DNA of 64,000 nt, from the NCBI RefSeq assembly GCF_028641065.1, contig NC_073378.1, forward strand, positions 62,558,001 to 62,622,000, given 5' to 3'. Every line of letters starts with the position of its first letter. Positions within the stretch are counted from its first letter, which is position 1. The notes beneath the pieces were generated by a model. That model ran no database searches. It saw only the letters and a list, made by a program, of their open reading frames with translations, and was not told where the DNA came from. Position numbers and translations under genes: made by a program. The stretch is from Leucoraja erinacea. Taxonomy: Eukaryota. Below, piece by piece: positions 4,752 through 64,000 of the stretch.

Positions 4752-6022
4752 TAGGACAGCAGGGTTCATTAAGATTCCATTGACACAAGGTACACAAAAG
4801 GAACATTCACACCAGTCATGACTGTATCTTTGCCTTTGCACTATCTATTCTACTGGAGTTTGACGATTGTATTTATATATAATCAATCTGATCTGGAGAT
4901 AGCACACAAAACGAAACTTTTCCCTGTTCTTCAGCCGGCCTACCCTTTACATCTTTAGAATGCAGCAGAAAAGAGAAGCACCTGTGGGAAATGCATGCAA
5001 TCACAGGATGAGTGCACATTCTGCATGCAGACGCACCTGAACTGTCCGCATGGAGAAAGCACCATACTACCACATGCTATCATATTGTCCTGCTGTGTCA
5101 CATTTGAAAGAACTTGCTCCCCACCGCAATTTGTCATTTCTTCTTGGATATTGCTCAATGGCAGTGCTCCTGTTTCGGAGATCATAGTTAGTACAATCAG
5201 GCCATGTATCAGAAATTTGAATCGCATTATTTATATTGGTACCTTTGTGCATAACTGACTTAATGCTTCACTGTTAGATTTGTTATGATTTAAATTAGAG
5301 ATTAACACCTGTTATAAATTTCTGCCTAGGAATAAATTATCATTTGCTGCATTCTGAGAAGTACAATGACGTGTTGATGATCTAGTCAACATTTATTCTG
5401 CTACCTTCTTAAACTGTTAATGATGTTTAAAGGGCATTTGGGAGGGGGCAGGAGTGTATGTTTAAATTTATTCTTGGAGTCAAATGAGTTTAGTTTACGT
5501 TGAATGGCAATCAATTTTAAGCACTGAGGATTTAATTTTAGTTAATGGCTAACTTTGGATTTTTGACTTGCTTTGGAAACCTAAAGCACATTCTGCTAAC
5601 TGCTCAACTTTCAGAACAGTAAATACATTGTTCATGATGAGAACGTCTTGAATATTTAAATGATGAATCTGCAAACAAATCTAGTTATATTACTTAATGA
5701 TCATATTTAATTAATATTTTAGCATCATGATGTAACTTATACAAAGATGGTTATGACATGCTATCACTGCAAACCAGGACAATTTTGTAATGTAAGTATT
5801 AACATGCAAAATTGTCCTGGTTTGCAATGATGTGTCATAACCATCTTTGTGTCTGTTACATCATGAAGCAAAAATATTAATTCAATGCGTAAAAATATAA
5901 TATTACATTTTAATTCAATTTTAAAACCTTGGGCAACTTTAAAGTTTGTGAATACTTGTCTCAAAAAAAGGATATCACAAAGTTACGCGAGGTGCTTCAT
6001 AAATGCACATTATATCTTCTAG

Positions 6023-9145: not shown

Positions 9146-10256
9146 CTTTAACAAATGCCGGTTATTATTCTAATATCTTGACACTAAAAGTTAAACATCA
9201 TTGTTATTTCAATTGGATTTCTATTGTCTTTTACACTTGTAAAACTTCATGAGTAAATTGTCCCTCTGATACCATAACTGGCAGGTGTGACTTGAACCAT
9301 CCGAAACTTGTGCTTTGTTTTTCTCCTTCTAAATTTATCTGCCTCTCCACTTCCCTTGTTTAAAAAAAATTCCTTTGATTAAGCTTTTGATCACCCAAAA
9401 ATATTTGACCCTTGTATCTTGGTCTATTTTTTTGTGTACGTTATTAAATTTTTGTGAAACAGCTTGAAAATACTGTTTAAAGTATTATGTTAACACAAAT
9501 TGTTTATAATGATGAAAGCATGGTCAGATAGGTATAAACAAAATAGAGTGATATGTTGGCTAATGGTCTATTCTGTACAAATCCTTTTTCCAAATCTGCC
9601 TCTTCAATCTGGCAATCCAAACCAGAGGAGATTTTGCAAATTTCCATTCAACATTTAAGCCCATGATAATAGGCTTTCAAAAAGCACTCGCGTGATTAAC
9701 ATAAAAATATGAAACATGAAATCAGAATTTTGTTTGAGGTGCAGTTGCCATTAAACGACTCAAAACTCCTGGGAAGTAGAAGAGATGATATTTTATCGTT
9801 ACACAGAGTAATTATAATATCAGAACATTTAAAATATTGAAGGTGGGCCTGTATGTCCACGGATGTTTGCATTTCATCTCGAGCCCCTCAATTCTAATTC
9901 AGTCTTCGTCCCTATTTAATTTAATGTTCTTCTTTTACAGGCAACTTTCTAATTTCCACTTCAATAATTTTGTCTGACCTAATAACTATGCTTAATGTAT
10001 GGCATTTTCACTGGATCCATGTTGAATAGATTCTTTCCAGTTTTCCTTTGTCTTTAGAGATATTCTTTGGTTTCCGTTCTATGTAGTACAACTAATTAAC
10101 CAACAGAACATTTCATTCTTTTGACTTTCAAGACTTTCCTCAGTATAGATGCCATGAGTTGCAGCCTATTTTCTGGTCCAGCTATTAGACCCTGATTTTT
10201 GAAGCATCTTTAAGAAGCCCATATTCTTTCTTGTATCATACATATGCATTTTGCTG

Positions 10257-10470
10257 AAGATAGACCTCAAAAGCTGGAGTAATCCAGTGGGTCAAACAGC
10301 ATCTCTGGAGAAAAGGAATAGGTGACGTTTCAGGTTGAGACCCTTCTTCATGTCTCGACCATGTCACCTATTCCTTTTCTCCAGAGATGCTGTCTAACCT
10401 GCTGAGTAATTCCAACTTTTTGTTTCTATATTCGGTTTAAACTAGCATCCGCTGTTCTTTCCTACACACT
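10257..10470. mobile_element. Palindromic Penelope-derived short element with hammerhead-like core
   Basis: Inverted arms; minus strand TGAAGAAGGGTCTCAACCTGAAACGTC; flanked by ATTTTGCTG direct repeat (10248-10256, 10471-10479). Confidence 0.7.
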
Positions 10471-10546
10471 ATTTTGCTGTGATGTTCATTGCTCCATGAG
10501 CTATCCTACAATGGGATGCAGTTTTGCATGCAATTACTCGGGAGTG

Positions 10547-13549: not shown

Positions 13550-15383
13550 CAGGTGCACAACCTTTTATCCGAAAGCCTTGGGACCAGACATTTTTCGTAA
13601 TTCGGAATTATTCGGCTTTCGGATTGGAAGATTTTTAGCGTAGATTTTAACGGCTGGCTCAGTGGTAGAGTGCTCGGCTCATATCCGCAAGGTCGCGAAT
13701 TTGCGCCTCGATCCCGGCAGTTACTCGATCGCGAGTTTGAGTCTTCAATGTAGTTTTTTCTTGCAGAATAGGAGAGAATAGGGAGGGATAGGCTGGGATC
13801 GTTCTCTGCGAGATAATCTTAGTGCAGGAGACAAGTATAGGAGAGGTGTACTGACTGTGTGGGCAGAACTTTGGAAGTGATTGCCCACCATTCTCAAAAG
13901 CCGCTGTGTCTCCCTGTCCCTCCAACTCCAGAGGAATCCTCTCCCCGATGGGCCGCTATGGCGACAAGTGGCAGTTCGCCCACAGCCCGAGCTGCGCCAC
14001 CCCAAGAACAAGACGTACCTTGCACACCATCAGCTTCTGCCCCTCTGGAGTTGGAGCGGGGCTGGGCTGGAGTTGCTGATCTGGGATCTCCGTGCTTGTA
14101 GTGGGCCTGGGGTTCGGAGTCCCGATGAGGGGGCGCAGCTCGGGCTGTGGGCGAACTGCCACTTGTCGCCATAGCGGCCCATCGGGGGGAGCGGCTTCTG
14201 GTGGTCCTGACGTCTTCGGCCACCCCCCTGTACAGGAACTGAGACTGGGAACTGTACCGCCCTTGCAGGTGAGCAGGAGAGTGGGGTTGTTTGCGGTTGC
14301 AGAGGGAGGGGGCAAGGGCGGTACAGTTCCCAGTCTCAACTCCTGTCCAGGGGGGTGGCCGGAGACATCAGGACCAACAGGAACCCACTCCCCGATGGGC
14401 CGCTCCAGCGATAAGTGGCAGTTCGCCCACAGCCCGAGCTGCGCCCCCTCATTCGCAACCCGGGTTCCTCTGGAGTTGGAGCGGGGCTGGGCTAGAGTTG
14501 CTGTTGGCTGTGAGTCTCCGGGATCTCCGTGCTTGCGGTCGGTGTCCCGTTGGTCCTGACGTCTCCGGCCACCCCCCTGGACAGGAGCTGAGACTGTGAA
14601 CTGTACCGCCCTTGCCCCCTCCCTCTGCAACTGCAAACAACCCCACTCTCCTGCTCACCTGCAAGGGCGGTACAGTTCCCAGTCTCAACTCCTGTACAGG
14701 GGGGTGGCCGGAGACGTCACAGCCCGAGCTGCGCCCCCTCATCTGCAACCCCAAGAACAAGACGCACCTTGCGCACCATCAGCTTCTGTCCCTACGGGAA
14801 GCGTGTTCCTCTGGAGTTGGAATGGGGCTGGGCTGCTGCTGGCTGTGGGTCTCTGGGATCTCCGTGCTTGCAGTGGGCCTGGGGGTCGGTGTCCCGTTGG
14901 TCCTGACGTCTCCGGTGACTGGCATTGACGTGAAGACGCAAAGCCCCTGCGCTGGTGCAATGGGCGGGGAACTGGAGAGGGGAGGGAAGGGGTCACACAC
15001 ATGGCCGGGAAGCAGAGGGGTGTAGGTGGGGTGAAACTGAAGGGAGCGACAATCTGCTGCTGCCTGCCAGCTGAGTTAAAATGTTCCCACGCAAGACTCA
15101 CGACACACTGTGTATCGTGAGTCTACCGTGGGAACTTTTTAACTCAGCGGGCAGGCAGCAGCAGATTGTCAATTATTAACCCTCCCGCGCCATATACCCT
15201 CACCTCTTTTATGAATGGGGATTTAGTTCCCCTTTCTTCGAGGACCGACCGGAGGTTCCGCTGTCACCTCTGCGGGCCGCACTCGGTAAACGTCTTCAAG
15301 GACCTTTCTTCAAGGACTGAAAAAATGTCCGCTATTCGGAGCTTTTCGTTATTTGGATCTTCGGATAAAAGGTTGTGCACCTG
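13550..15383. mobile_element. Non-autonomous pogo/Tigger-like DNA transposon
   Basis: TA target on both sides; perfect 24-bp TIR CAGGTGCACAACCTTTTATCCGAA / TTCGGATAAAAGGTTGTGCACCTG; subterminal TTCGG repeats; GC-rich palindromic interior; no transposase. Confidence 0.88.
13651..13718 (+). pseudogene. tRNA-Met(CAT)-like sequence / SINE-like head inside the transposon
   Basis: A-box TGGCTCAGTGG (13655-13665), CGG-CTCATAT-CCG anticodon-like arm, AAGGTCGCG then an interrupted B-box ...TCGATCCC; no acceptor stem. Confidence 0.55.
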
Positions 15384-16044: not shown

Positions 16045-16310
16045 TCACCCCAGCGGTATGAACATTGACTTCTCCAATTTCAGGTAGTCCTTGCTTTCTC
16101 CCTCTTTCCCCTTCCCAGCTCTCCCACAGCCCACTGTCTATGCCTCTTCCTTTTTTCTTCCCCCCCCCCCCACCTCCACATCAGTCTGAAGAAGGGTCTC
16201 GACCCGAAACATCACCTATTCCTTTGCTCCATAAATGCTGTCTCACCCGCTGCGTTTCTCCTACGCTTTTCTCTACCTTCGATTTTTCCAGCATCTGCAG
16301 TTCCTTAAAC
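16045..16310 (+). mobile_element. Penelope-like element 3' end with hammerhead-like motif
   Basis: PSGMNIDFSNF ORF end, pyrimidine tract, then CTGAAGAAGGGTCTCGACCCGAAACATC at 16186-16213. Confidence 0.75.
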
Positions 16311-20875: not shown

Positions 20876-22053
20876 ATAAACCTTTCAGTGGCAGTCAAAA
20901 GTTGACTTTTTTTTGTATATTCTCTTAAAGATTGACTGATGCAAAACCAGTGGCACAAGAAATTGCAGTCTGAAGAAGGGTCCTGAACCAATGCGTCGTC
21001 TGTCCATTTCCTTCATCTTCAACATGGTCAATAAAGATAATTGTTAACATTTCAACTGCCAACTGAATTACCCAACACTGCTTAGAAATTCAGGTGGGAC
21101 TCATTGCAATATTTGAATTGTCTGTTGTACTAGTTTATTCCTTATTGTACCATTTAGGGTTAAGCAAAGAGAAAAGTGACATCAAGTAACTCAGAATTCA
21201 AATAGATTCTTGAGAAGGATGTCATTAATCCTGGAGAGGAATGATCCATTGAAACTGCATAATTCCAATGCCTGATTGTCATATTTCTATATACCCTATT
21301 TCTGACTGTAACTCTTGATCATATACCCTATTTCTAGTTCTACAGCAACTACTGCACAGGATAGAATTCTCAATATCACTACCTTGCAGAAAGAACTGTA
21401 TTTTAACCAAGACTAATCTTATTCCAGAATAAAACAACATGATCAGCCTTGCAGTCATAAATACATAAGATCACTCTATTCACCCAGCTTTCTTTTCATT
21501 ATAATTGTCTTTATGAATGAGAATATACACAACTTTCTCAATGATTCAATTGATTTTAGTACTGCCCCAAAAGGTTCTACTTTCATTCAACGTAAAGTTA
21601 TTGCTGAAGCAATACTAAAACTTGGTCTTAATTTTCCTTCTCTGCTTGAATAGTAGTACAATTTATGCTCCAAATATATCTTCCACATGTTGAGCTTTAT
21701 TTTAGAGCATAGCTCAAAAATTCAAAAAGGAGTGTTTTGATAGGCGTGCAGAATAAGGCTGTTTACTGGTTCTATTAGATGTTGGATTTCTCATTTTTTA
21801 AAAGTTTTATGAGGAGAAAAGGGGTTTGTTAGTAAAGGAAGTGAAATCTGAGGCTATACAGTGGCGTATACGTGGTGAAGTCACTATAATGTCTCCGATT
21901 TCTACCCATTTGTGTCTCCGACTCGAGCGGACCTTTCACAAGCTAAGGATGTATACCCGCCCTCACCCCTACTCCCATCTACCTTTCTGCAGAACTTACA
22001 CTTTAAAAAAAAAATCTGCTCTTTCCCTGAACCTGTATTGCTATATTCTGCAA

Positions 22054-22198
22054 ACGGACACAAATTACTGGGGTAATTCAGCAGGTAAGGCAGCATCTCT
22101 GGAAAACATGAATAGATGATACTTCAGGTCGAGACCCTTTTTCAGACCTTTGTGTCATTTTGCGTATATTAACCAATATCCGCAGTATTTTTTTTCTA
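22054..22198. mobile_element. Penelope-derived short element
   Basis: Family sequence; flanked by CTATATT(C/T)TGCAA direct repeat (22041-22053, 22199-22211). Confidence 0.65.
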
Positions 22199-23034
22199 CT
22201 ATATTTTGCAATCTGTTTCCTTTCTCTTTGCACTATTTGTATACTCGTGAATGGTTCTGGTTGTAATCATGTATGGATGTTTTTACCTTAATTGCAGCCA
22301 AAACAATGTTTTTCACTATCGGTACACATTACAGTAATAAATCTATATCAATAGATGTGACAGCCATTAATGACTGACTGGTTAAGAGTACTAGTGAGGC
22401 ATTGAACCAAAACTCATTTATTTTAGGTCTGGTTCAAATTCAAAGCTCTCATATATTCATTCTTATAATTACATATATTTCTAATTATTTTTAGATCCTG
22501 TTCCTTTCTGGGCAAGGTGCCACAAATTGGTTGAATAGTATCGATGTTGATTGTGTGATTTTTTTTTATTGATTTTTTCCTGAAAAGAGACTGAAGCCTT
22601 ATGAGGTTATATTTTTGGAGGATTCTGAATATCTGTGTGACTTTGTCAAATAAAGTGTGTGGAATTCTACTTGGTGTAACTATGGAAAACAAATGTAAAT
22701 CTCTTCTGGGAAGTGACATGAGAATTACCAATCTCATTTGGATTCAATTGTTTGTAATATGCATTATCCAGATTTCACTTCATTTTTAATGAATGTTCAC
22801 TGGCATGACTTAAAATGCCACTTATACAAGACCATCAATTACTTCCTTATTAGCTCTGATTGGTGTTTTACAAAGAGAAATGTAGCAGCATAATTTACTA
22901 CATCCTGGAATCAGTTACGTTAAAGGAAGCATAAAATTGTGTGCTTTGTTTCTGGTAGCTACTCTTCTACAATCTCCTTTGAGAAATATGTGTTTGGTTT
23001 CTATGTACTGAACAAGTCTAACTACACAGCATGT

Positions 23035-29730: not shown

Positions 29731-29799
29731 GAATGGTGGAGTAGATTTGATGGGCCGGCCCACCTAATTTTGCTCTGATTACTTAAGACCTTATGAAAT

Positions 29800-29985
29800 A
29801 CAAGGAACAACAGATGCTGGAATCTTGAGTAAAACACAAAGTGCTGGAGTAACTCAGTGAATCAGGCAGTATCTGTGGAGGGGAAGGATAGGGGCCGAAA
29901 GGGTCCTGACCTGAAACGTCACTTGTCCATTCCCTCCACTGCTGCTGCCTGACCCACTGAGTTGCAACAGCACTTTGTGTTTTGT
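29800..29985. mobile_element. Palindromic Penelope-derived short element
   Basis: Inverted arms acacaaagtgctg...cagcactttgtgt with GGGTCCTGACCTGAAACGTCACT core. Confidence 0.65.
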
Positions 29986-31084
29986 TCAATTGGAAATAGT
30001 TGGTAGGATGAAAATTACTATAACTAAATGTTTTACACCTGTATATTACCATCCTCTCTTGTAGATTGGTTACAGTGGTCATAAAAAATAATGGTATTAC
30101 TAATAATTATCGTTGTTTTTCTATTAGTCAAACTGCTCATGAGCTTTCGGACTAAGTATTCAAAATGATGCATCTGCTAAATGTTAAGGAATTAATTATT
30201 GCTAATTGGTTTTGTGACAATAGTAAACAAAAATGGTGATTTCCCCAGAAATGGGAAATAATTTTGCTGAATTCTTGAGAAGTGGATGCAAATGTTCTCT
30301 TTGTAGATACTGACCAATATACCAGATTTCGATTTTTAATTTGCTCTCAATTCAGCTGCCAAACACATGGACTTAAATATTTTGATCTTGGTTGTTCGCT
30401 AATTCATTTGAAAGGAGAGACTATAGTTAAGGCTATGGGCCTCACAATTCATCAAAGAGAACATCTTCAAGGTTTCAAGGTCAGTTTGTTGTCACACGTA
30501 CTAGTTAAGGTACAGTGAAATTTGAGTTATCAAAACCACAAATAGTTCACATCACTTGTAAAGTTGTACAAGAGTCAGAAATATAAGAGTATGACTATAG
30601 CTTAATATGAAATCAAGTGAGTCTAGTTTCTGCTATGGTTTTAGATGTATTATATGTTAGCAGCAACTGAGGTAAGAACAGAAGACTGATGGGAGAAACC
30701 TGCAACTTTCACACAGTAATGAATTTGCTGATGTAAAATGGAAATTCAAACCAAGCTTTGGGCTGTGTTACTCACTGGTTTGTATGAAGAAGCATGGTTT
30801 AATTAAGATAAGCCAGTTGTCCAAGGGCTGATGACATGGAGGTCTCCAGTGAGCACACTATATGCATATGATTATTTTCTAGTTGATTTTCTTTAAGCTA
30901 ATTTTCCAAAAAGGAATGTTCCATGAGTTTATGATCTAAGGAATTTTTACAGCTGACTAAAAAAAGCCTTAGGCCCATTCTATGATATTGAATTTGTTCA
31001 TAAATTGTTAGCTTGGTGAACATGATATGATTTTTTTTATTCTTAGGAAATTAACTTCATCACAAAACCTACTTTTTTTTTTTT

Positions 31085-39785: not shown

Positions 39786-39969
39786 CAGCCAGTATGTGGA
39801 AATGAAGTTGTATTTATATCCCTTCTCCCCCTCATTTCAAAGGCTCATCACCTGCCCCACCAGGTTTTATTCCCCATGTCCCATATACCCATCTAACTGG
39901 GTTTCTTACCATTGGTTCATCTTTATTATCTCCCCCACCTGTTTTCACCTGTCCATCGTAATAAAAAGG

Positions 39970-40385
39970 AACAGCTGATGCTGGTTTATACCAAAGATAG
40001 ACACAAATTGCTGGAGTAACTCAGTGGGTCAGGTAGCATCTCTGGGGGAAATGGATAGCTGACATTTCAAGTCGGGGTCCTTCTTCAGACTGAAGAAGAC
40101 TACATCAAGGTCATGACCTGAAACGTCACCTATCCATTTTCACCAGAGATCAATGGTGGTCAATGTTTCAGTTCGAGACCCACCTCAGAACCTTGAAGGT
40201 AGACGGCAAAATGCCAGTGTATAGAATTGAGAGAAAGGGGGTGAAACAGAAGCTGATAGGTGAAACTAGATAAGGGGGAGATGAAACATGACAGACACAA
40301 AATGCTGGAGTATCTCAGCGGGTCAAGCAGCATCTCTGGAGGAAATGGATAGGTGACTTTTCAGGGTGAGACCCTTCTTCAGTTT
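39970..40385. mobile_element. Cluster of Penelope-derived short elements
   Basis: Family arms in both orientations, including ttcttcagactgaagaa centre at ~40081-40097. Confidence 0.65.
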
Positions 40386-41788: not shown

Positions 41789-42825
41789 TTGGATTATACC
41801 ACACCTTCATCTTCAGAGCCAGTGAGGAGTGAGCACTGACCTAGTTGCGAAGCTGACATTTCATATAAACTGTAGAGTGTGGATAAAATCCCTGCAGCAA
41901 TGCTGCATGAGAGGGTGCAACGCAACATTTGCATATTAGCTATCAAATCTGATGGATAGAGATTGCCGGTTGGTCAGAGAATCGTGTGAGGTGCATCCAA
42001 CATTGTTCGAGACCAATAGTATGGAAGGATATAGCTTTTGAAATTATTCACCCTGACTAGGAGCATAAATTCACTAAAGTTTCTCACTAAGGCATCCCGA
42101 TTTTCAGGACATGACTCCTGGCATTGACTGCCATAGTTACAGTATCTGCTGCCTTCAGGGAGTTTGAATGGGGGAGGGGGGGGGGGGGCACCTGTGTACC
42201 CATGGAGAGTGTCTTTCATTTCATTACTGAAAGGGCTTTCAGGCAGCTGTGTAGAATCTGGGAGCCCAGTCTCTTCCAGCCTGTGACTTTCTCCAATGTC
42301 CACGTCTCTGTGAATTCAAGAATGCCTGTCTTCATCTGGCGAAGCCGTAATGCACCCCCCCTTTAAAACTGCTGGCTGACTTTAATGAGGGCAAGCGTAA
42401 TGGTGATAGTTACTGGAATTGAGGCTCTGCTGAGTCGGGGAGCCACTCTGCTGTGCAATTAATCCTGTCTGCATGTGGCTATCACCTAAATGTGCACGCA
42501 ACACACATTTGCCATGCTCACTGCGTGGGAAACAATGCCCTTAGCTTATTATGCACCGCCTTCCCCATACTTGTTTTCCATGTTTACCTGACTGTAATCT
42601 CCTTTCTTTCCAATGACGTAAATGAGCTAATGTTTTGTGACTGCGCAAAATGTAACAATACTTTCCAAACTGTCCCTTTGCTTTGGGGAATACAACAAAA
42701 GGGCTATGCAGCTATTTTTTTATTGTTAAATGTAGATGAATGACTTTGATATCAACAGTAATAAGGAAAATAGGGCATAGTCATTTTATTAAAAAAATGG
42801 ATATTCCAAACAAATAAAGTCCGTT

Positions 42826-43039
42826 AGACACAAAAAGCTGGTGTAACTCAGCGGGACAGGGAGCATCTCTGGAAAGAATAGGTGATGTTTCGGGTCGAGA
42901 CCCTTCTTCAGATAGTCTGAAGAAGGGTCTCGACCCGAAATGTGACCCATTCCTCTACAGAGATGCTGCCTGTTCTGCTGAATCACTCCAGCTTTTTGTG
43001 TCTATCTTGGGTTTAAACCAGCATCTGCAGTTTCTTACT
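42826..43039. mobile_element. Palindromic Penelope-derived element with two opposed hammerhead-like cores
   Basis: ...TTTCGGGTCGAGACCCTTCTTCAGA tag TCTGAAGAAGGGTCTCGACCCGAAA...; flanked by ACAAATAAAG direct repeat (42810, 43040). Confidence 0.8.
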
Positions 43040-43430
43040 ACAAATAAAGCCCTTTGTTACTGAGTGATCATTAGGAGGGACTGGAAAGGCTATCTAAATT
43101 GTCATCTGCTGTATTCCACTGACTGAGACAATAATTCCCTTTATCTCTTGGCAGCTGGGCTAGCCATTGTGTATGGGGGTGTTGAAGAGGGCCCTTGCTG
43201 GTGCCTTTAAATATTTGCAAGATTCTAAAACATCTGTTTCTAGTCTGACCATCTTTGGCAGGAAGGAGCATAGCGATTTACGGATCAGAGAAACAGCACA
43301 ACACTGCTGGCAGTTTTCTGCTTTCTGCTCTCTGATCCAACTGATTTGTTACAGTTTAAAATTACATATTTCCGAATAAATTTTGAATTAAACTACACTA
43401 CAGTATACACTACACCGTATCCTTAACAAC

Positions 43431-43524
43431 TCTGAAGAAGGGTCTCGACCCGAAACGTCACCCATTCCTTCTCTCCAGAGATGCTGCCTGTCCCGCTGAG
43501 TTACTTCAGCTCTTTGTGATCTAC
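43431..43524 (+). mobile_element. Penelope-derived short element with cleanest hammerhead-like core (43432-43459)
   Basis: CTGAAGA A GGGT-CTCG-ACCC GAAAC GTC. Confidence 0.75.
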
Positions 43525-49124: not shown

Positions 49125-50620
49125 GTGAAACAACTTCACTTCGATGAGATGGTAGCAAATTTCCTTCCAATTTCACCAGATCTTGCTGGGTCCTTTGTTC
49201 TGGATCACAAGGCGTTGCTGGCCATTCTGGAGCTAAACACAGTTATTCCCCCAATGGCAGTCTCTAGAGGCAGTAGTGACTTATTTTCCTGCCTCAATTT
49301 GACCATGACACAGAATATAAGATTTCAAAATAAAGTTCTATGGTTGACACCCTTTCAAGATGACCTCATGGGGAAGCCAGAACACACAATAAATGTACTC
49401 TGCATGCAATAAAAGACAATTATCCTGACAGAGCAGTGGAAATAAATGGTAAAGAACCGATGTTAAGGCAAGAGTATAAACACACATTTCAGAGGATGAT
49501 CCAATCTGAATGAAGTCATGAAATTGTTCCAGTGTAGATGCTATGAACTAAGGTTGCATAAAATGGTGGCAGAGGAAAGGTTGGCCAAAGGATTCACCAA
49601 GCATAGTTATGTCAGAGCTGCATACCAACCACTTGAGTGGAGGATAATATGAAGGCAGAGGATGGAGGATTTGTTTACCATCCACCAAAAGCTAAGAGAG
49701 AGATGTGCAGGAAAGAACCGCAGATGCTGGTTTAAATCGAAAAGTAGACACAAAATGCTGGAGTCACTCAGCGGGACAGGCAGCATTTCTGGAGAGAAGG
49801 AATGGGTGACATTTCAGGTCGAGACACTTCTTCTGCCTGATAGAAGTCTGATCAGGCTGAAGAAGGGTCTCAACCCGAAACGTCACCCATTCCTTCTCTC
49901 CAGGGATGCTGCCTGTCCCCCTGATTTATTCCAGCATTTTGTGTCTACTAAGAGAGAGATGATCTCACTAGAACACAGCCTTGTCAAGCACCCACTGTGT
50001 GGGAGTGAAGTACAAAATTGTTGAATTGTGTAGACACAAAATGCTGGAGTAGCTCAGCGGGACAGGCAACATCTCTGGAGAGAAGGAATGGGTGATGTTT
50101 CGGGTTGAGACCCTTCGTCAGACAGATGATTGTGTCAATTATTTGTTAATTGACAGGCATTCAAAGTATTAGAAGTATAGCCAATGGGGTCATGCGTCTC
50201 CAGAGAAGGAACAATAGGGGAATTAACATTTAATTTTGCTACATGGTCTTCTGGAACAAGTCGTATGAAATAATGTTTAGATGATTTCAATTTGAACAAT
50301 TTATGAAGAGCAAATAAAACAGCAGAAATGAAATAAAAACAAATAAAGTAAGATTTTGCTTCTCACCACTCATTCTTCAAAGGGGGAAACAATTGTATAA
50401 TAAAGAGAGCTGTGAAGATCCAGGTCCGGGAATGTCACAATGAATCATGCACAGGCTGAACTGGTTTTAATGCTATCAAACAAACCACTTGCCACAACAG
50501 GATACATGGTGGAAATGACAGTGCATGAGAGGCTCAGGACATCCGGCATATACAGCATCATTTGGAACAAAAAGTTGAGGGAGGACAGTTTAGAGAGAGC
50601 AAGCTTTGCAACTCATGCAA
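49125..50620 (+). mobile_element. Ancient Ty3/Gypsy pol relic (RNase H to integrase), interrupted by Penelope-derived units
   Basis: Degenerate in-order motifs FVLDHKALLAIL...IPPMAVSR, VMSELH, LIDRHSK.LEV, FAT.GLLEQVV, FEQFMKS, ERAVK, PLATTG. Confidence 0.6.
49706..49947. mobile_element. Palindromic Penelope-derived element
   Basis: Inverted arms, CTGAAGAAGGGTCTCAACCCGAAACGTC core; 14-bp TSD CTAAGAGAGAGATG (49692-49705, 49948-49961). Confidence 0.82.
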
Positions 50621-52510: not shown

Positions 52511-53056
52511 AATACACAAGAACCAAAATGTACTGAAGAGAGTCAAAACAAGATCATATCTATGAGTTCATCAAAATCAGCAGTAGTATTATGTAAAGAG
52601 TACAGTAATACAAAGTCTGTAATTCAGACGAATAAAGAAATGTGCTAAATCAGTTTTATTTTAAATAAAAGGTGAGGCAGTGTGGTACAGTAAACTCTTA
52701 ATTTTCAGAGGAATGTGATCTGGAAGTAGCTGCGAATCCCAGAAACCAGGGATATGATTTTTATGTAAGTGCAGAAATCAAAGTATGTATGTAAAGTGTA
52801 ATCATAATGTAATGTAACTCAGTTAATAAACTTACCATAATGTTTAACTATAACAATCAAGTATTGTGCTGGTAAGTCTGCTGTTTGCTGCTTCAGTGGC
52901 AGTGGCTAATTATCAGCCATAAATGAAAAACAAACCCCACACTTGTTTTGACAAGCTCAAACATATAAATCATTCATTGAATTACCCTTATTGATGGAAA
53001 GGCCAGATGGAAGGGCATCATTAAGCCAATTAGCTGGAGTAAATAGCATTCATTTT

Positions 53057-53147
53057 CTGAAGAAGGGTTTCGGCCCGAAACGTCGCCTATTTCCTTCGCT
53101 CCATAGGTGCTGCCTCACCCGCTGAGTTTCTCCGACATTTTTGTCTA
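53057..53147 (+). mobile_element. Penelope-derived short element (subfamily 2) with hammerhead-like core
   Basis: CTGAAGA A GGGT-TTCG-GCCC GAAAC GTC; TSD CATTCATTTTC (53047-53057, 53148-53158). Confidence 0.78.
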
Positions 53148-54231
53148 CATTCATTTTCATAAATCAGTTTGAACATTGGCAAGAGTCTCTGTTAAATTAT
53201 TGATATTACATTGCCCCAAGTAATTTCTAGAAATTGTTTAATCCACTGAGATATTGACTGTGAATTTGCAAAATTGCCAAAGTGAAACATGCAAATGTAA
53301 ATGGTTTATTGTACGTTGTTTTTTGTGTAATGATTGTTAATAAAAACTTGTCATTGTTTCAAGGATTGTATTGTATTATCTGGTCTATATTTTGTCCCAG
53401 GGTGAGCCTGTAACTAGCCTTTAAATAATCCACACACATACCTTGTCTGAGAGCCTTGTTTCTCAGTTGCATACACTCTACAATGGACTTTATTCAAGAC
53501 TGAGAAACCATTGCGCATGGACATGTCGCAACCATAATTAATTTCTCTTTTTATAATCTTGAAAACATCTATTTGATCATTTCAAAATGTGTGCTTTTTG
53601 AAAGAAAACCACCATCTATAATCCTGATGAATTTTTGTTTCTGAAGTTGGAGTTATTTTTGTTGTTTGACTATCTACTCTCTCAAGAGACCATAACAGCT
53701 TTCACCAAGCCAATTTTGTGGTCAGCAGCTTGGTTCCGGCCAATTGGAATTTAGCAGGAGTTGTGAAATTGGCAGCTGGTGGTGGTTCCGTTCTTGCAAA
53801 AACATTTCTGTGATTTTAAAATCCAGCTTCATCCCCATGGAATGTTTTATAATGCATTCTGAAGCAAGAGCTTCATTTAGGATGCAGATGGCACAGAGGG
53901 GGTTGATTAGCAACTAAAAGATATATTTCCAGCCCTCATTAATGAGATGTGTGAAGAAAAACTAAGGGCAATGAATTGGCTTATTTTGATAAATAGCAAG
54001 ATTGAAAATCTAATGGACAAGTCAATAGCTGGATGAATGAGATGAGTTGCCAATGAGAGATATTGGAGAGTCGCTGAGTAAGAATTGATAACTGTGCATG
54101 GAATATTATGAAACGGTTGAAGTAGCAGCAAGCTTATTTGCATCGAACAGCAGACATCAGCAGCATGAGGTACAGCATTTAAAAAAATCTAATAATTAAA
54201 ACTGAAAAATTGAGATGAGATTACATTTGGT

Positions 54232-54855: not shown

Positions 54856-55508
54856 TCATTTGAAATCTGTTGCTGGATTCCACTTTAAATGTATTATGAT
54901 TTCTAATTGTGTTTTGAACAGTCTTTTTCTTTTCCGTGTAATGTAGAATGTATGTGTAATTTGTATGTAATTTAAGTTTCTGTGTGTTTTCTGAGTCTGT
55001 GCATGTGATCCTGCAGCAAGCAAGATTTTCATTGCACCTGCTTCTCACTTTACTTGTGCATATGCCAATAAACTTGACTTGACTGAGCTCGTTAGATTTT
55101 ACAAGTACATCCAATATAATTAATTTAAATTGGTTCCTGGTGCTTGCAATATCTTGTTTATGGCTCCTGGGTCACTGGGAGTAACTCATTTGAAACTACA
55201 AGTATTCTTAATTTTATACCAGCTCTGAAAAATGATGTTAATTGCTTGCTTCAGTGTTTTATCCTGGTCCTCATCAACAAAGTAGCTCATCAAAGTATTT
55301 GGTTTGACTAATGACTTTTGGGGCCTGCACATAATGATGATTGAGAGCTTCAGTTTTCTGTGATTTTGTTTTTAGAAAATGAAATAATAATTAATATACT
55401 TTAAAAATAGATCAAAGACAGTGTTACAAAAATTAGAGCTTCTACAGTTTTCCACCTTTTCTAAATAGAGATTAATATTGATAGAGTGATGAAGTCACGT
55501 CAATCTAT

Positions 55509-56061
55509 GTGTTTAAGAGGGAACTGCAGATGCTGGAGAATCGAAGGTTACACAGAAAAGCTGGAGAAACTCAGCGGGTGCAGCAGCAGCTATGGAGCGA
55601 AGGAAATAGGCAACGTTTCGGGCCGAAACCCTTCCTCAGACTGATCAGGGGTGGGGGTGGGTGGGGACAAGAAAGGGAAAAGGAGGAGTAGCCGGAAGGC
55701 TGGAGGGTGGGAGGAGACAGCAGGGGAGCTGAGGAAGGGGAGGAGACAGCAAGGACTAACAGAATTGGGAGAAGTCGATGTTCATGCCCCCGGGGTGCAG
55801 ACTCCCCAAACGGAATATGAGGTGCTGTTCCTCCAATTTCCGGTGCTGCTCGCTGTGGCCATGGAGGAGACCCAGGACAGAGAGGTCGGAGGCGGAGTGG
55901 GAGGGGGAGTTGAAGTGCTGAGCCACCGGGAGGTCAGCTTGGTTATTGCGGACCGAGCGGAGGTGTTCGGCGAAACGTTTCGTGCCGAAACTTTGCCTAT
56001 TTCCTTCGCTCCATAGATGCTGCTGCACCCGCTGAGTCTCTCCAGCTTTTCTGTGTAACCT
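55509..56061 (-). mobile_element. Penelope-like element, 5'-truncated with inverted terminal copy
   Basis: GIY-YIG C-terminal RFAEHLRSVR...PVAQHFNS.SHS...RKLEEQHLIFRLG.L.P.GMNIDFS; ~85-bp inverted ends; 14-bp TSD TCACGTCAATCTAT (55495-55508, 56062-56075). Confidence 0.9.
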
Positions 56062-56149
56062 TCACGTCAATCTATTGTGGTTTCAAACTGAGATTGATCC
56101 AAACAGGTTTTTTTCCACTGGCAGCAGGCAATGAGAATATTAAACAGGA

Positions 56150-58639: not shown

Positions 58640-59620
58640 GTGGGGGGAAGAGAGGAGGGTCAGGATAAAGCCTGGCAAGTGATGGGTGATACAGGAAGAG
58701 AGTGCTGGAATGCTGGAGAGTTAACTAAATTAGAGAATTTGATGTTCATGGATTGAAAGCTACCCAAACAGAATACAAGGAGAATACAAGGAGCTGCTCA
58801 TCTAGTCTGCATGTAACCTCACTCTGATAATGGAGGTGGCCCAGGACAGAAAAGCCAGTATGGGAATGGGAGTTTAAATGGTTAGCAAACGGGAGATGCA
58901 GGAGGCGTTGGCGGACTGACTGCTGAGTGTACACTTGGTTTCACTAACGTAAAGATCAGGAACACTAAATGCAGTAGATGGGGATAGAGGAGGTGCATGT
59001 GAACCTCTGTCTCAGCTGTAAGGACTGCTGGGGTCACTGTATCGATATGAGGAACAGAGACGGTCGTTATTTCTCCTGGGGGAGGGGTTAGTTTGGGTGG
59101 GAGGGAATGCATGAACAAATGAATTGTGGAAAGAGTGGCCTCTGCAGAAGGCAGAAAGGAGTGGGGGTGGGAAGATGTGACTGGTGGTGGAATCACGTTG
59201 GAGGTGGTGGAAATGTTGGAGAATGATGTGTTGGATGCGGAGGCTGACGGGGTGAAAGGCAGGAACCAGGTGAATTCTACTCTTGTTTTGTTTAAGGGAG
59301 GGGAAAGCAAGAGCAGAACTACAGAACCCAGGAGACATGGGTGAGGGAACCATATATGACACCAGGGAGCAAACATGTTTACTAAAGACAAAGAACATCT
59401 TGGATGTTCTATAATGAAAAGCCTCATCTTTGGAACAGATGCAGCAGAGACAGAGAAATTGAGAGTAGGGAATAGTGTCTTTGTAAGTGGCAGAGTGAGA
59501 GGAGGTGTAGTCCAGATAACTGTGGGAGTCGGTGGGTTTGTAGTAGACATCAGTCGATAGTCTGTCCCTTGTGATGGAGACAGAGATCAAGGAAGGAGAG
59601 AGGGATGTCAGAGATAGACT
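58640..59620 (-). mobile_element. Degenerate Penelope-like RT thumb/GIY-YIG fragment
   Basis: LSTDVYYKPTDSHSYLDYTSSH...IPYSQFL...ICS; LPFANHLNS.SH. Confidence 0.85.
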
Positions 59621-61930: not shown

Positions 61931-62654
61931 AAGAAGGGTCTCGAACTCGACCCGAAACGTCACCCATTCCTCCTCTCCAGAGATGTCCCGGTCCCACTGA
62001 TTTACTCCAGCTTTTTGTGTCTACCTTTGCTTCTTACTTTATTTTGTAAGGTTATGGATTTCACTATTATTACCCAATTTGCGTTGGTAAGCACAGAAAT
62101 GGATATTGCACATCGCATGACACCATTAGAAAATGCCAGACATACTGTCATGGATTGCAAATGGAAATGTCCAGGCCAATTTTGTGATGGTCACAAATCA
62201 AGCTGAAAATAAGCACAAGCATGATCTAATGTGAAATGGCCTTCATGAGTGAACTGGCTTTATTTTAGATGTTTTAAAATCTCTTACGTTCCCTATTTTT
62301 TTAATCATTCATAATTTTTATTTCTGACATGCACATACACATCTGCTTAGACATCTTTTTTGAAATCTGAAAATTCTAACCGTACCAGAAACTATTTTAA
62401 GTTGCTGGAAACAGAGAACCAAAAGATAGGGGCAGTATGTCTCCCAGCACTTTTTTTTACATTCTCTCATTCATTTAATCATGAGATTATTTTACTAATC
62501 GTGGAAGTGTTGTGAAGTGGAGCCCAAAAGCTCAATCTCAATTTGTTTATTTAAAATTATTCATAATCCAAATATGAAAGGGATTTGGAGCTGGCACAAG
62601 AAACAGAGAGCAACCAGGTTGTGTTTTCACTGGATGTGATGTTGGGGACATAAC

Positions 62655-62832
62655 AGACTACAGATGCTTGAATTCTGAGTAAAATACAAAGTGCTGGAGG
62701 AACTCAGCAGGACAGGCATCATCTCTGCAAGACATAGATGGACAAGGTTTATAGACAACATGGATAGAAAATTAATCCATCCATATTCTCCAGAGGTCCT
62801 GCCTTACCCGCTGAGTAACCTTAGCACTTTGT
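62655..62832. mobile_element. Old palindromic Penelope-derived short element
   Basis: acaaagtgctggaggaactcagc...gctgagtaaccttagcactttgt inverted arms. Confidence 0.55.
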
Positions 62833-64000
62833 GATGTGAGAATGGTGAGGAATCAACATTGTTTCCCAGCAACTGGAGGCTAAGAAGTCATGATGGAAAT
62901 TGCTGAGGAGATCAGTAGCATGTGCAATGTTGTTGGACTCAGTGGTGAAATGTACTGAAAGGATTACTGAAAGTGAGGAAAATTACACTTTCACTTAGAT
63001 GATTACAAACCAGGTTATGCCCCCCCCCCCCCCCCCCCCCCAACCCTCCTGCCCTTAATGCCCTCCGCTGCCTTCCACTTAATTTCCCATGAGTCTCCAG
63101 ACACTACTTTTCCAACAGAATTTTTTTGATATTTCCTCACTTACTGTCCCCATTGCATTGTTGGGGAAGAGAGCAATCATCCCCAAAATAGGAAAGGTTT
63201 TACATTTTCTCTGGTTGGTGTATCTTGCATTGGCTCTAGTCTCTGCAAGCCCAACACTGGCCAGGTTCTGAAAATCAATCTCTAAAGCTAAAGATGTTAG
63301 ATTGATTTTTAATGACAGATGAGATGAATAGTTGTCTAAACAAACTAAAGATCAGCACAAGTACAAGGTTTCTTCAGAATAATGTTTTGTCATTTTAAAC
63401 CTCATTTATTTATAACATTTAATGCACTTAATGATCTCTAATAATTACAAAGTGATGTGTAATTAGCATTATAATATCACTGACAGGATCAATATACCAA
63501 TAGAATTCTCCAAGGGAGCTGTAACAATGTGGTCTCTGACTTCAATGGACAATTAGTGGGAAAAATACTTCAGATTTGTTAGGTGGACATTTGAGTCGAT
63601 TCATAAAATTACATCACATGATTTACTTTCCATTTTGAGGAATTTGCAGATTACTTCACTTTAAACTAATGGCTTCCTTCCGTTCTGCGGACCCCTGTGA
63701 TGGTGATGTGGGTTGGGGTAAATTTCTGCAGTCATTCCCTTGACTATCTGGTGAAACTTTGGGGAGAGGGCTACTCATTCATTGAAAATGAGAAAAATCT
63801 GCCAGTGGAAATTCAGTCTCATAGCCCTTGTCATCTGATCAGGCTGACAGGACTGTAGTTTAAAGTCACTTCTGAAGGATCACAATCTTCAGGCAGTGGA
63901 TAGATTTTTAAAAGTAAAAGTTATTAACGCTTGTGAGGAGAGTGTGGGGATATGGTATTGAGACAGATGATCAGTCATGTTCTCAGAGCTTAATAGCGCA

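Follow-up and report, generated by a model that had tools for sequence, protein, structure and literature searches.

Penelope-like elements (PLEs) that encode an endonuclease (EN+) leave insertions of a distinctive anatomy: copies lie in partial tandems and are heavily truncated at 5', where an inverted copy is attached head-to-head; further marks are a tail of 30–40 bp at one end, target-site duplications of 8–10 bp or longer, palindromes at the junctions and an initiator-like word in the pLTR (PMC3846280, PMC8557442). The origin of the inverted ends and tails has been stated as an open question (PMC8557442, PMC11167929). Metazoan PLEs also carry minimal hammerhead ribozymes, with an additional base separating positions 9 and 10.1, a G10.1–C11.1 pair, a palindromic 15.2–16.2 and no helix III; dispersed single motifs are ascribed to truncated PLEs and opposite-strand pairs lie 100–700 bp apart (PMC4209133). 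For one anole element, Poseidon PAc of Anolis, both target strands are cut and extended at AT-rich targets, two internal reverse transcription start sites bound the tail, a dimeric protein is predicted and the template is mainly RNA that has not been cut (Frangieh 2024, PMC11167929). In the same paper the ribozyme is dispensable for insertion and there are no RNA ends at its cleavage site. Finally, non-LTR retrozymes are short, non-coding, PLE-derived sequences with a type I hammerhead, which form head-to-tail tandem arrays and occur in a chondrichthyan (bioRxiv 10.64898/2026.07.22.740005).

The window analysed here, a stretch of 64,000 nucleotides from the skate Leucoraja erinacea, is rich in short mirror-image repeats. 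These are the pLTR ends of endonuclease-bearing PLEs, left behind as solo stubs and head-to-head pairs. An inverted 5'-truncated copy, a tail of 30–40 bp at one end and a target duplication, the hallmarks of EN+ PLEs, are all found, as are the remaining features listed above for EN+ PLE insertions and metazoan hammerheads; the likeness to PAc covers the two tail-defining start sites, the extension of both strands, the AT-rich targets, a ribozyme dispensable for insertion and the lack of RNA ends at its cleavage site. The anatomy of inverted pLTR, tail, duplication and minimal hammerhead has been published (Arkhipova 2013, PMC3846280; Craig 2021, PMC8557442; Cervera 2014, PMC4209133; Frangieh 2024, PMC11167929) and, as objects, the skate stubs are nothing unusual: end repeats of PLEs that carry a ribozyme motif already known. 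No description of these stubs in cartilaginous fish was found in the literature searched; the family may be listed in Repbase or Dfam entries, subscription papers or the supplements of PMC4209133 and the bioRxiv preprint.

The skate copies also depart from these systems. Compared with the EN+ PLEs described in PMC3846280 and PMC8557442, they consist mostly of the pLTR alone, number ~10^5–10^6, and have allowed both a rule of one long and one short arm and a wall at the 5' end to be counted on hundreds of copies. Unlike in PAc (PMC11167929), the 5' UTR contains the hammerhead together with the two start sites, and the ATG follows C3 by ~165 nt; the linker motif of the protein is of Neptune/Nematis type, and the two strands of genomic pairs use different start sites. 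Helix I has 2 bp, which matches the D. virilis variant, versus the typical 4–5 bp, and helix II is 4 bp (PMC4209133). Whereas retrozymes form head-to-tail tandem arrays, the skate copies are dispersed or head-to-head.

An iterated profile built from window copies identified 26 arms, or ~1 per 2.5 kb, whereas the reversed-sequence control gave 0 matches in 1.16 Mb. An earlier note on this DNA had listed 13 positions of a recurring motif, and all 13 are among the 26 arms; the density of ~1 per 5 kb that it gave was too low for this window. The arms beyond that list lie at 7.45, 23.1, 26.5, 40.1, 53.1, 55.6, 56.0 and 62.7–62.8 kb. The four duplications that had been named are all present at the ends of elements: 10248/10471 (9 bp, exact), 22041/22199 (13 bp, one mismatch), 42810/43040 (10 bp exact, or 13 bp with one mismatch) and 49692/49948 (14 bp, exact). 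Two more were found at 55495/56062 (14 bp) and 53047/53148 (11 bp), and a lenient duplication search gave repeats at chance level only for the remaining 11 of the 17 window elements tested. As this search reached at least 9 bp at 28 of 100 random sites, the 9-bp duplications rest on their position. The proposal that head-to-head pairs insert as single events, with duplications, holds.

The region singled out in the earlier note lies at 42.8–43.5 kb. Here, a two-armed insertion is bounded by target-site duplications at 42810..42819 and 43040..43049 (10 bp, exact repeats of each other). The left arm, on the minus strand (42824..42914), is a short-ended pLTR copy that ends ~+91 from C3 and has a core decayed at G16.2. 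The right arm, on the plus strand (42915..43039), is long-ended, with a ~35-nt tail (~43004–43039) and a core decayed at C15.2 and H17. The two, both identified by the profile, meet head-to-head at a self-complementary TCAGA/TCTGA just upstream of both cores (42908..42920), with 3 nt between the arms (42876–42912 and 42916–42952), and neither passes the relaxed minimal-hammerhead descriptor. The profile also places a solo short pLTR stub at 43429..43521 on the plus strand, for which the lenient search detected no duplication. Within it, positions 43432..43459 (plus strand) read CTGAAGAAGGGTCTCGACCCGAAACGTC, an intact minimal type I hammerhead core by sequence and descriptor: CUGAAGA, the extra A, a 4-bp stem II, GAAA, CG and GUC, with a stem I of only 1 bp. 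Only five family arms in the window pass the relaxed descriptor (43432, 49857, 53057, 55639 and 40088); a sixth match, at 62903, is unrelated to the family.

Two-armed insertions occur throughout the window and differ in age and completeness. The profile and its 9-bp duplication define a short-plus-long pair at 10248..10479, in a GALNT1 intron, the sense arm of which lacks CUGA. At 22041..22211, bounded by the 13-bp duplication, a short arm on the minus strand is joined to a right arm consisting of the tail region only. An older long-plus-short insertion lies at 29798..29986, and profile matches define both an insertion joined at TTCAG-A-CTGAA with an interrupted right arm (39962..40150) and an old one without cores (62651..62876). 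The long-plus-short pair at 49692..49961, with a 14-bp duplication, retains by descriptor the intact core at 49857, without stem I. The young subfamily is represented by a solo short stub on the plus strand at 53047..53158, which begins at the core and has an 11-bp duplication, and a young asymmetric two-armed insertion is present at 55495..56075, as defined by sequence and its 14-bp duplication. In the latter, the minus arm comprises tail, pLTR, 3' UTR and 71 codons of the endonuclease end, while the plus arm is short and the joint lies inside stem II.

The window also contains other repeats. A cluster of GC-rich nested inverted repeats in a GALNT1 intron (13939–14915), with arms up to 175 nt and 95% complementary, contains at least two copies of a unit that itself bears ~60-nt inverted ends and is unrelated to the PLE stubs. 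Two further GALNT1 intron elements are MITE-like: an AT-rich palindromic element of ~180 bp at 5705–5886, and a hairpin at 15048–15170 with 61-nt arms and 1 nt between them. These two are the source of spurious Rfam miRNA-family matches in the window, which were rejected as generic hairpins. On the minus strand, 58882–59620 is a diverged PLE fragment of the reverse transcriptase and thumb, similar by eye to the young family's ORF; no pLTR arm adjoins it and Pfam gave no match.

The identity of the repeat is established by its position in longer copies. As had been proposed, a copy of the motif follows the end of a Penelope ORF at 16045–16310: a PLE ORF ends at positions 16046–16087, which encode its final 13 residues and the stop. 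By translation and descriptor, the whole feature (16046..16310, plus strand) is a 5'-truncated PLE with the last 14 codons of the ORF, a pyrimidine-rich 3' UTR and a tailed pLTR with a decayed core, and lies in sense within an intron of GALNT1. For the body to which the 55.6-kb arm belongs, the genome contains at least 41 near-identical matches among 1,163 candidates, and its full parents are found as two partial-tandem loci with a unit of ~3.95 kb and repeats that are 99% identical. Both long parent copies carry frameshifts. The parent ORF matches the reverse transcriptase (PF00078) at cut-off and, C-terminal to it, the GIY-YIG endonuclease (PF01541) at E=5.7e-4 and 20.6 bits, below the 22.6 cut-off; the translated linker contains C-x4-C-xx-C and CxxC, a Neptune/Nematis-type motif as defined in PMC8557442. 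In the partial tandems the motif follows the stop of the ORF by ~115 nt and precedes the next ATG by ~165 nt, and therefore the stub is the pLTR. The unit of ~130 nt thus spans the interval from the 3' UTR of a tandem copy to the 5' UTR of the copy behind it.

The same pLTR is attached to more than one type of body. Among 204 arms reaching C3, it is preceded by unrelated 3' UTR clusters of 37, 7, 6 and 2 members and by several singletons, and the sequence common to these clusters begins at TCAGT. An ORF match was present within 600 nt upstream of 39 of the 204, some from neighbouring copies. Successive PLE families have kept the pLTR block. Some PLEs have a spliceosomal intron in the pLTR; in the skate elements an intron-like arrangement of GT, pyrimidine tract and AG precedes the core, and no such joint was found among the RNA-read joints listed.

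The copy number is very high, as the earlier note had proposed. In 116 stretches of 10 kb from 11 contigs, 442 arms were found (3.8 per 10 kb), which extrapolates to ~830,000 arms in the 2.19-Gb genome, and a gene sample that included smaller contigs gave 5.9 arms per 10 kb. The exact intact-core pattern has 59,188 matches genome-wide and 0 in the control, compared with the ~4,000 in coelacanth and ~9,000 in Xenopus obtained with another descriptor (PMC4209133).

How the arms are arranged was analysed in these samples. Arm 3' ends fall at two sites ~35 nt apart, near +90 or +128 from C3, referred to below as short and long. Neighbouring arms lie within 30 bp of each other in 72 of 114 head-to-head cases, 8 of 95 tail-to-tail cases and 11 of 125 direct cases, and a second sample, of gene stretches, gave 69 head-to-head versus 4. 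There are 85 pairs within 300 bp, 52 of them classifiable at both ends: 40 are long plus short, 8 short plus short and 4 long plus long (p=6e-5). When only pairs with a duplication of at least 8 bp are considered, 24 of 25 are long plus short; the independent gene sample gave 40 of 47 classifiable pairs (72 in total), and in young pairs 10 of 11 combine a long (tailed) with a short arm. The rule is broken in 12 of the 52 and 7 of the 47 pairs.

The junctions in these pairs are individual. All 11 young pairs have different 5' ends and junctions, with microhomology of 0–7 nt or inserts of 1–16 nt, and their arms, whose points of truncation are individual, measure from ~90 nt up to 1.7 kb. Arm starts in the 85 sampled pairs spread from −5 to +96, with no shared centre or fixed length. 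Since the junctions differ and the arms are truncated separately, the palindrome is not copied as a unit. A two-template comparison showed that the arms of young pairs differ mostly at private sites. L1 offers a parallel: in L1 twin priming, second-strand priming gives an inverted 5' part inside one duplication, as in the skate pairs. L1, however, inverts an upstream, non-overlapping part of one RNA, whereas both arms of skate pairs repeat the same 3' end. No report of twin priming by PLEs was found in the literature searched, with subscription papers outside its scope.

Of the solo arms, only 28 of 227 have a duplication of at least 9 bp (control, 5). Several observations were made on single copies. 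Young single copies with long bodies end at the short site in 11 of the 12 having a visible 5' end, while short solo stubs with a duplication more often have the long-site end (19 of 28). In two young 'single' copies (L014 and L016), AGTGT lies at the 5' junction between duplication and body and is the reverse complement of the tail end; a second arm may have been aborted here after a few bases. At another locus (L104, near 8960, minus strand), duplication and stub are separated by an insert that repeats the duplication in inverted orientation, which would fit a target end that folded back before capture.

We favour, with a probability of about 0.75, the reading in which pLTR ends are left as solo stubs or pairs and every insertion forms its pair afresh, through priming of the two cut strands by the element's protein. 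The reverse transcriptase–endonuclease, acting as the dimer predicted by others, would cut the two target strands ~9–15 bp apart, and each 3' end would prime cDNA synthesis at one of the two internal start sites, ~+90 and +128 from C3. The templates may be two RNAs or the two pLTRs of one RNA. Priming at the first pLTR of the RNA would let the cDNA run off at the transcription start, probably the A of the initiator-like TCAGTCT, 3 nt before C3, producing stubs of 90–130 nt. The two cDNA ends could then be joined via a short self-complementary word, either AGACT or the GTTTCG/CGAAAC hairpin, or by end-joining to give palindromes, and loss of one arm would give a solo stub. The hammerhead would act after, or apart from, reverse transcription, leaving the template uncut. 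This reading interprets the genomic counts in the light of the anole results, although the long/short asymmetry of genomic pairs was not seen in that in vitro system (PMC11167929). The pairs that break the long/short rule and the scarcity of duplications at solo arms count against it. Evenly poised, in our judgement, is a more specific form of double priming in which it is asymmetric: one subunit of the dimer would always work at the tail site and the other at the short site, the stubs would be 'strong-stop' copies of the 5' end of a capped, uncut PLE mRNA, and a start 3 nt before C3 would limit stem I to 2 bp and keep the ribozyme off during reverse transcription.

The first alternative is a SINE- or retrozyme-like non-autonomous family, in which the 90–130-nt unit or the palindrome has its own internal promoter and is re-inserted in trans by PLE proteins. 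Stubs do far outnumber bodies, both in RNA reads (in run X24 the depth is ~5 upstream vs ~1,450 over the core) and in the genome (153 vs 70 arms); a stub that starts at the initiator may retain the promoter and both reverse transcription start sites; and non-autonomous PLE derivatives are known (Craig 2021, PMC8557442; bioRxiv 10.64898/2026.07.22.740005). However, every pLTR type examined is also found on ORF-bearing PLE bodies, the palindrome junctions vary from copy to copy, arm lengths grade from <50 nt to >1.6 kb, and head-to-tail neighbours are few. The separate family proposed in the earlier note is thus unlikely, although second-round copying of some solo stubs is possible.

Palindromes could also arise by self-priming (snap-back) of a single cDNA or from an antisense RNA template, with the tail produced by endonuclease resolution of the intermediate. 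Such routes have been proposed before (PMC3846280, for head-to-head palindromes and an antisense template; PMC8557442). The skate junctions often lie at small palindromes, and 10 of 16 stubs starting at TCAGT carry the T predicted by fold-back (p=0.05). In contrast, the two arms of a young pair break off at positions that are unrelated and differ by hundreds of bases, with 0–7 nt of microhomology and no hairpin at the joint, AGACT should not be able to close a loop within one strand, and the tail matches the start sites used in vitro (PMC11167929). Self-priming is possible but unlikely, and double priming remains the preferred reading.

The 5' ends of the arms were also counted. Of 226 arms reaching C3, 153 stop there, 70 enter the pyrimidine-rich body (by a test with a false-positive rate of 6%) and 3 are at a locus edge. 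Many short copies end 0–5 nt before the core, at TCAGTCT, a sequence that fits the vertebrate initiator consensus. In the young subfamily, 49 arm starts, with the two arms of a palindrome counted at their joint, comprise 18 at −5..+1, 22 at +2..+25, 5 downstream of these and 4 upstream. For Penelope itself, the pLTR has been reported to contain an initiator (PMC2377424, PMC3846280). RNA reads were taken from raw runs under the same species label and are mostly host transcripts with embedded copies; their loss of homology peaks at A(−3), with 563 reads in one run (X24), and no read pile-up marks a start site in the RNA runs. If the cap is copied, position −4 should show an excess of G. The sample had G in 13 of 22, and genome-wide the counts are 10,681 G, 9,363 A, 7,614 T and 84,277 C; G thus makes up 38.6% of the 27,658 non-C cases vs 28% expected. 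This modestly favours a copied cap, but the effect is small and, because C dominates at −4 and the G excess shrank genome-wide, the start site is not pinned down.

Arm starts are not in excess around the cleavage site, with a single arm at +28 and 11 of 442 at +25..+31, and the RNA reads show neither pile-up nor 5' ends there. The RNA ends after GUC that the earlier note had suggested mapping are thus absent from both reads and insertions.

The core itself is that of a minimal Penelope-type hammerhead, as first noted, with CUGANGA, GAAA and UH, the extra nucleotide at 9/10.1, G10.1–C11.1 and the palindromic 15.2–16.2. The descriptor has 48 matches in 1.16 Mb vs 1 in the control. Non-CpG core positions are kept at 92–98% over 168 arms, and the losses are mainly CpG decay at G12 and C15.2–G16.2. 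When core and flank are compared, the non-CpG core is better conserved than the downstream sequence (0.93 vs 0.83, p=0.0002–0.001), but conservation is just as high at 20 of 50 downstream positions; the comparison of core with flanks, which the earlier note had set as a refuting condition, thus gave a mixed outcome. Changes between subfamilies are all compatible with the fold (loop II, U-A to U-G in stems I and II, GUC to GUU); they are one-sided, and no two-sided compensatory stem change was seen between subfamilies. Stem I is short, as suspected, at 2 bp (U-A or U-G, and G-C); the next pair is A-C in 50 of 70 body-bearing arms, stem I is at most 2 bp in 45 of the 48 descriptor matches, and with an RNA start at −3 it could not exceed 3 bp.

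No Rfam hammerhead covariance model matched the window or 43390–43500 at E<=10, which would be unsurprising for a motif without helix III. An alternative hairpin is predicted in which a downstream UUCCUUC pairs with the core GAAGG, single units have no significant folding z-score, and a dimer fold with helix III is predicted at −13.3 vs −25.0 kcal/mol for the best dimer. Palindromes are predicted to form one long duplex of −135 to −163 kcal/mol, burying the core, and the predicted probability of stem II is ~0 in palindromes and 0–0.05 in solos. PLE hammerheads are weak in vitro, the anole one needing protein (PMC11167929, PMC4209133), and dimer cleavage has been described (Lunse et al., as cited in PMC6765202). 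Source elements retain an intact hammerhead, and it is likely to be active in them alone, either as a dimer or with the help of protein; the inserted stubs are likely inert and decaying at CpGs.

The placement of the locus bears on whether inserted copies act on host genes. By exon match, GALNT1 is on the plus strand and its stop is at ~18159, in what we take from likeness to the family's C terminus to be its last exon. Because of this position, only 4 of the 26 arms lie in GALNT1 introns; the claim of intronic copies holds for these, but none has an intact sense core and the 42.8–43.5 kb locus lies downstream of the gene. From 18.2 to 64 kb, the ORFs of at least 90 aa recognised by eye are only transposon fragments, a search in which short exons would be missed.

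Strand bias in introns was examined in 60 stretches of 10 kb from ten long channel genes, defined by PF00520 exon clusters without annotation, so that some of the sequence is exonic. Unpaired arms were 95 sense vs 115 antisense (p=0.19), with no bias overall, and intact cores in the same 600 kb were 13 sense vs 8 antisense. One channel gene (L189–L193) was the only skewed one of the ten, with 3 sense and 16 antisense unpaired arms (p=0.004, uncorrected). In two single-cell runs, the element's minus-strand reads exceed plus-strand reads ~3.4-fold; since the ORF part shows a skew at least as strong, the core is not its cause. Over one element copy (L073:6150–6600), minus-strand reads in runs X22 and X23 are in ~3-fold excess along the pLTR and in still greater excess along most of the ORF end, for which internal oligo-dT priming is a possible cause. 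The idea that sense copies are active ribozymes that cut host pre-mRNA, for which the 59,188 intact cores, the read skew and the one skewed gene might speak, is highly improbable in view of the unbiased orientation, the absence of ends at the cleavage site, a stem I of at most 2 bp, the negligible predicted stem II, the buried cores of palindromes and the weak activity of PLE hammerheads in vitro.

What the skate offers is data. The genome holds ~60 two-armed stubs per Mb together with a young, near-identical family with known parents, from which sharp predictions follow: a long plus a short arm, run-off at −3 and an uncut template. If asymmetric double priming is true, the genome would hold >100,000 independent records of the reaction. 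In addition, a vertebrate genome can hold tens of thousands of intact hammerhead cores without visible strand selection in the introns sampled.
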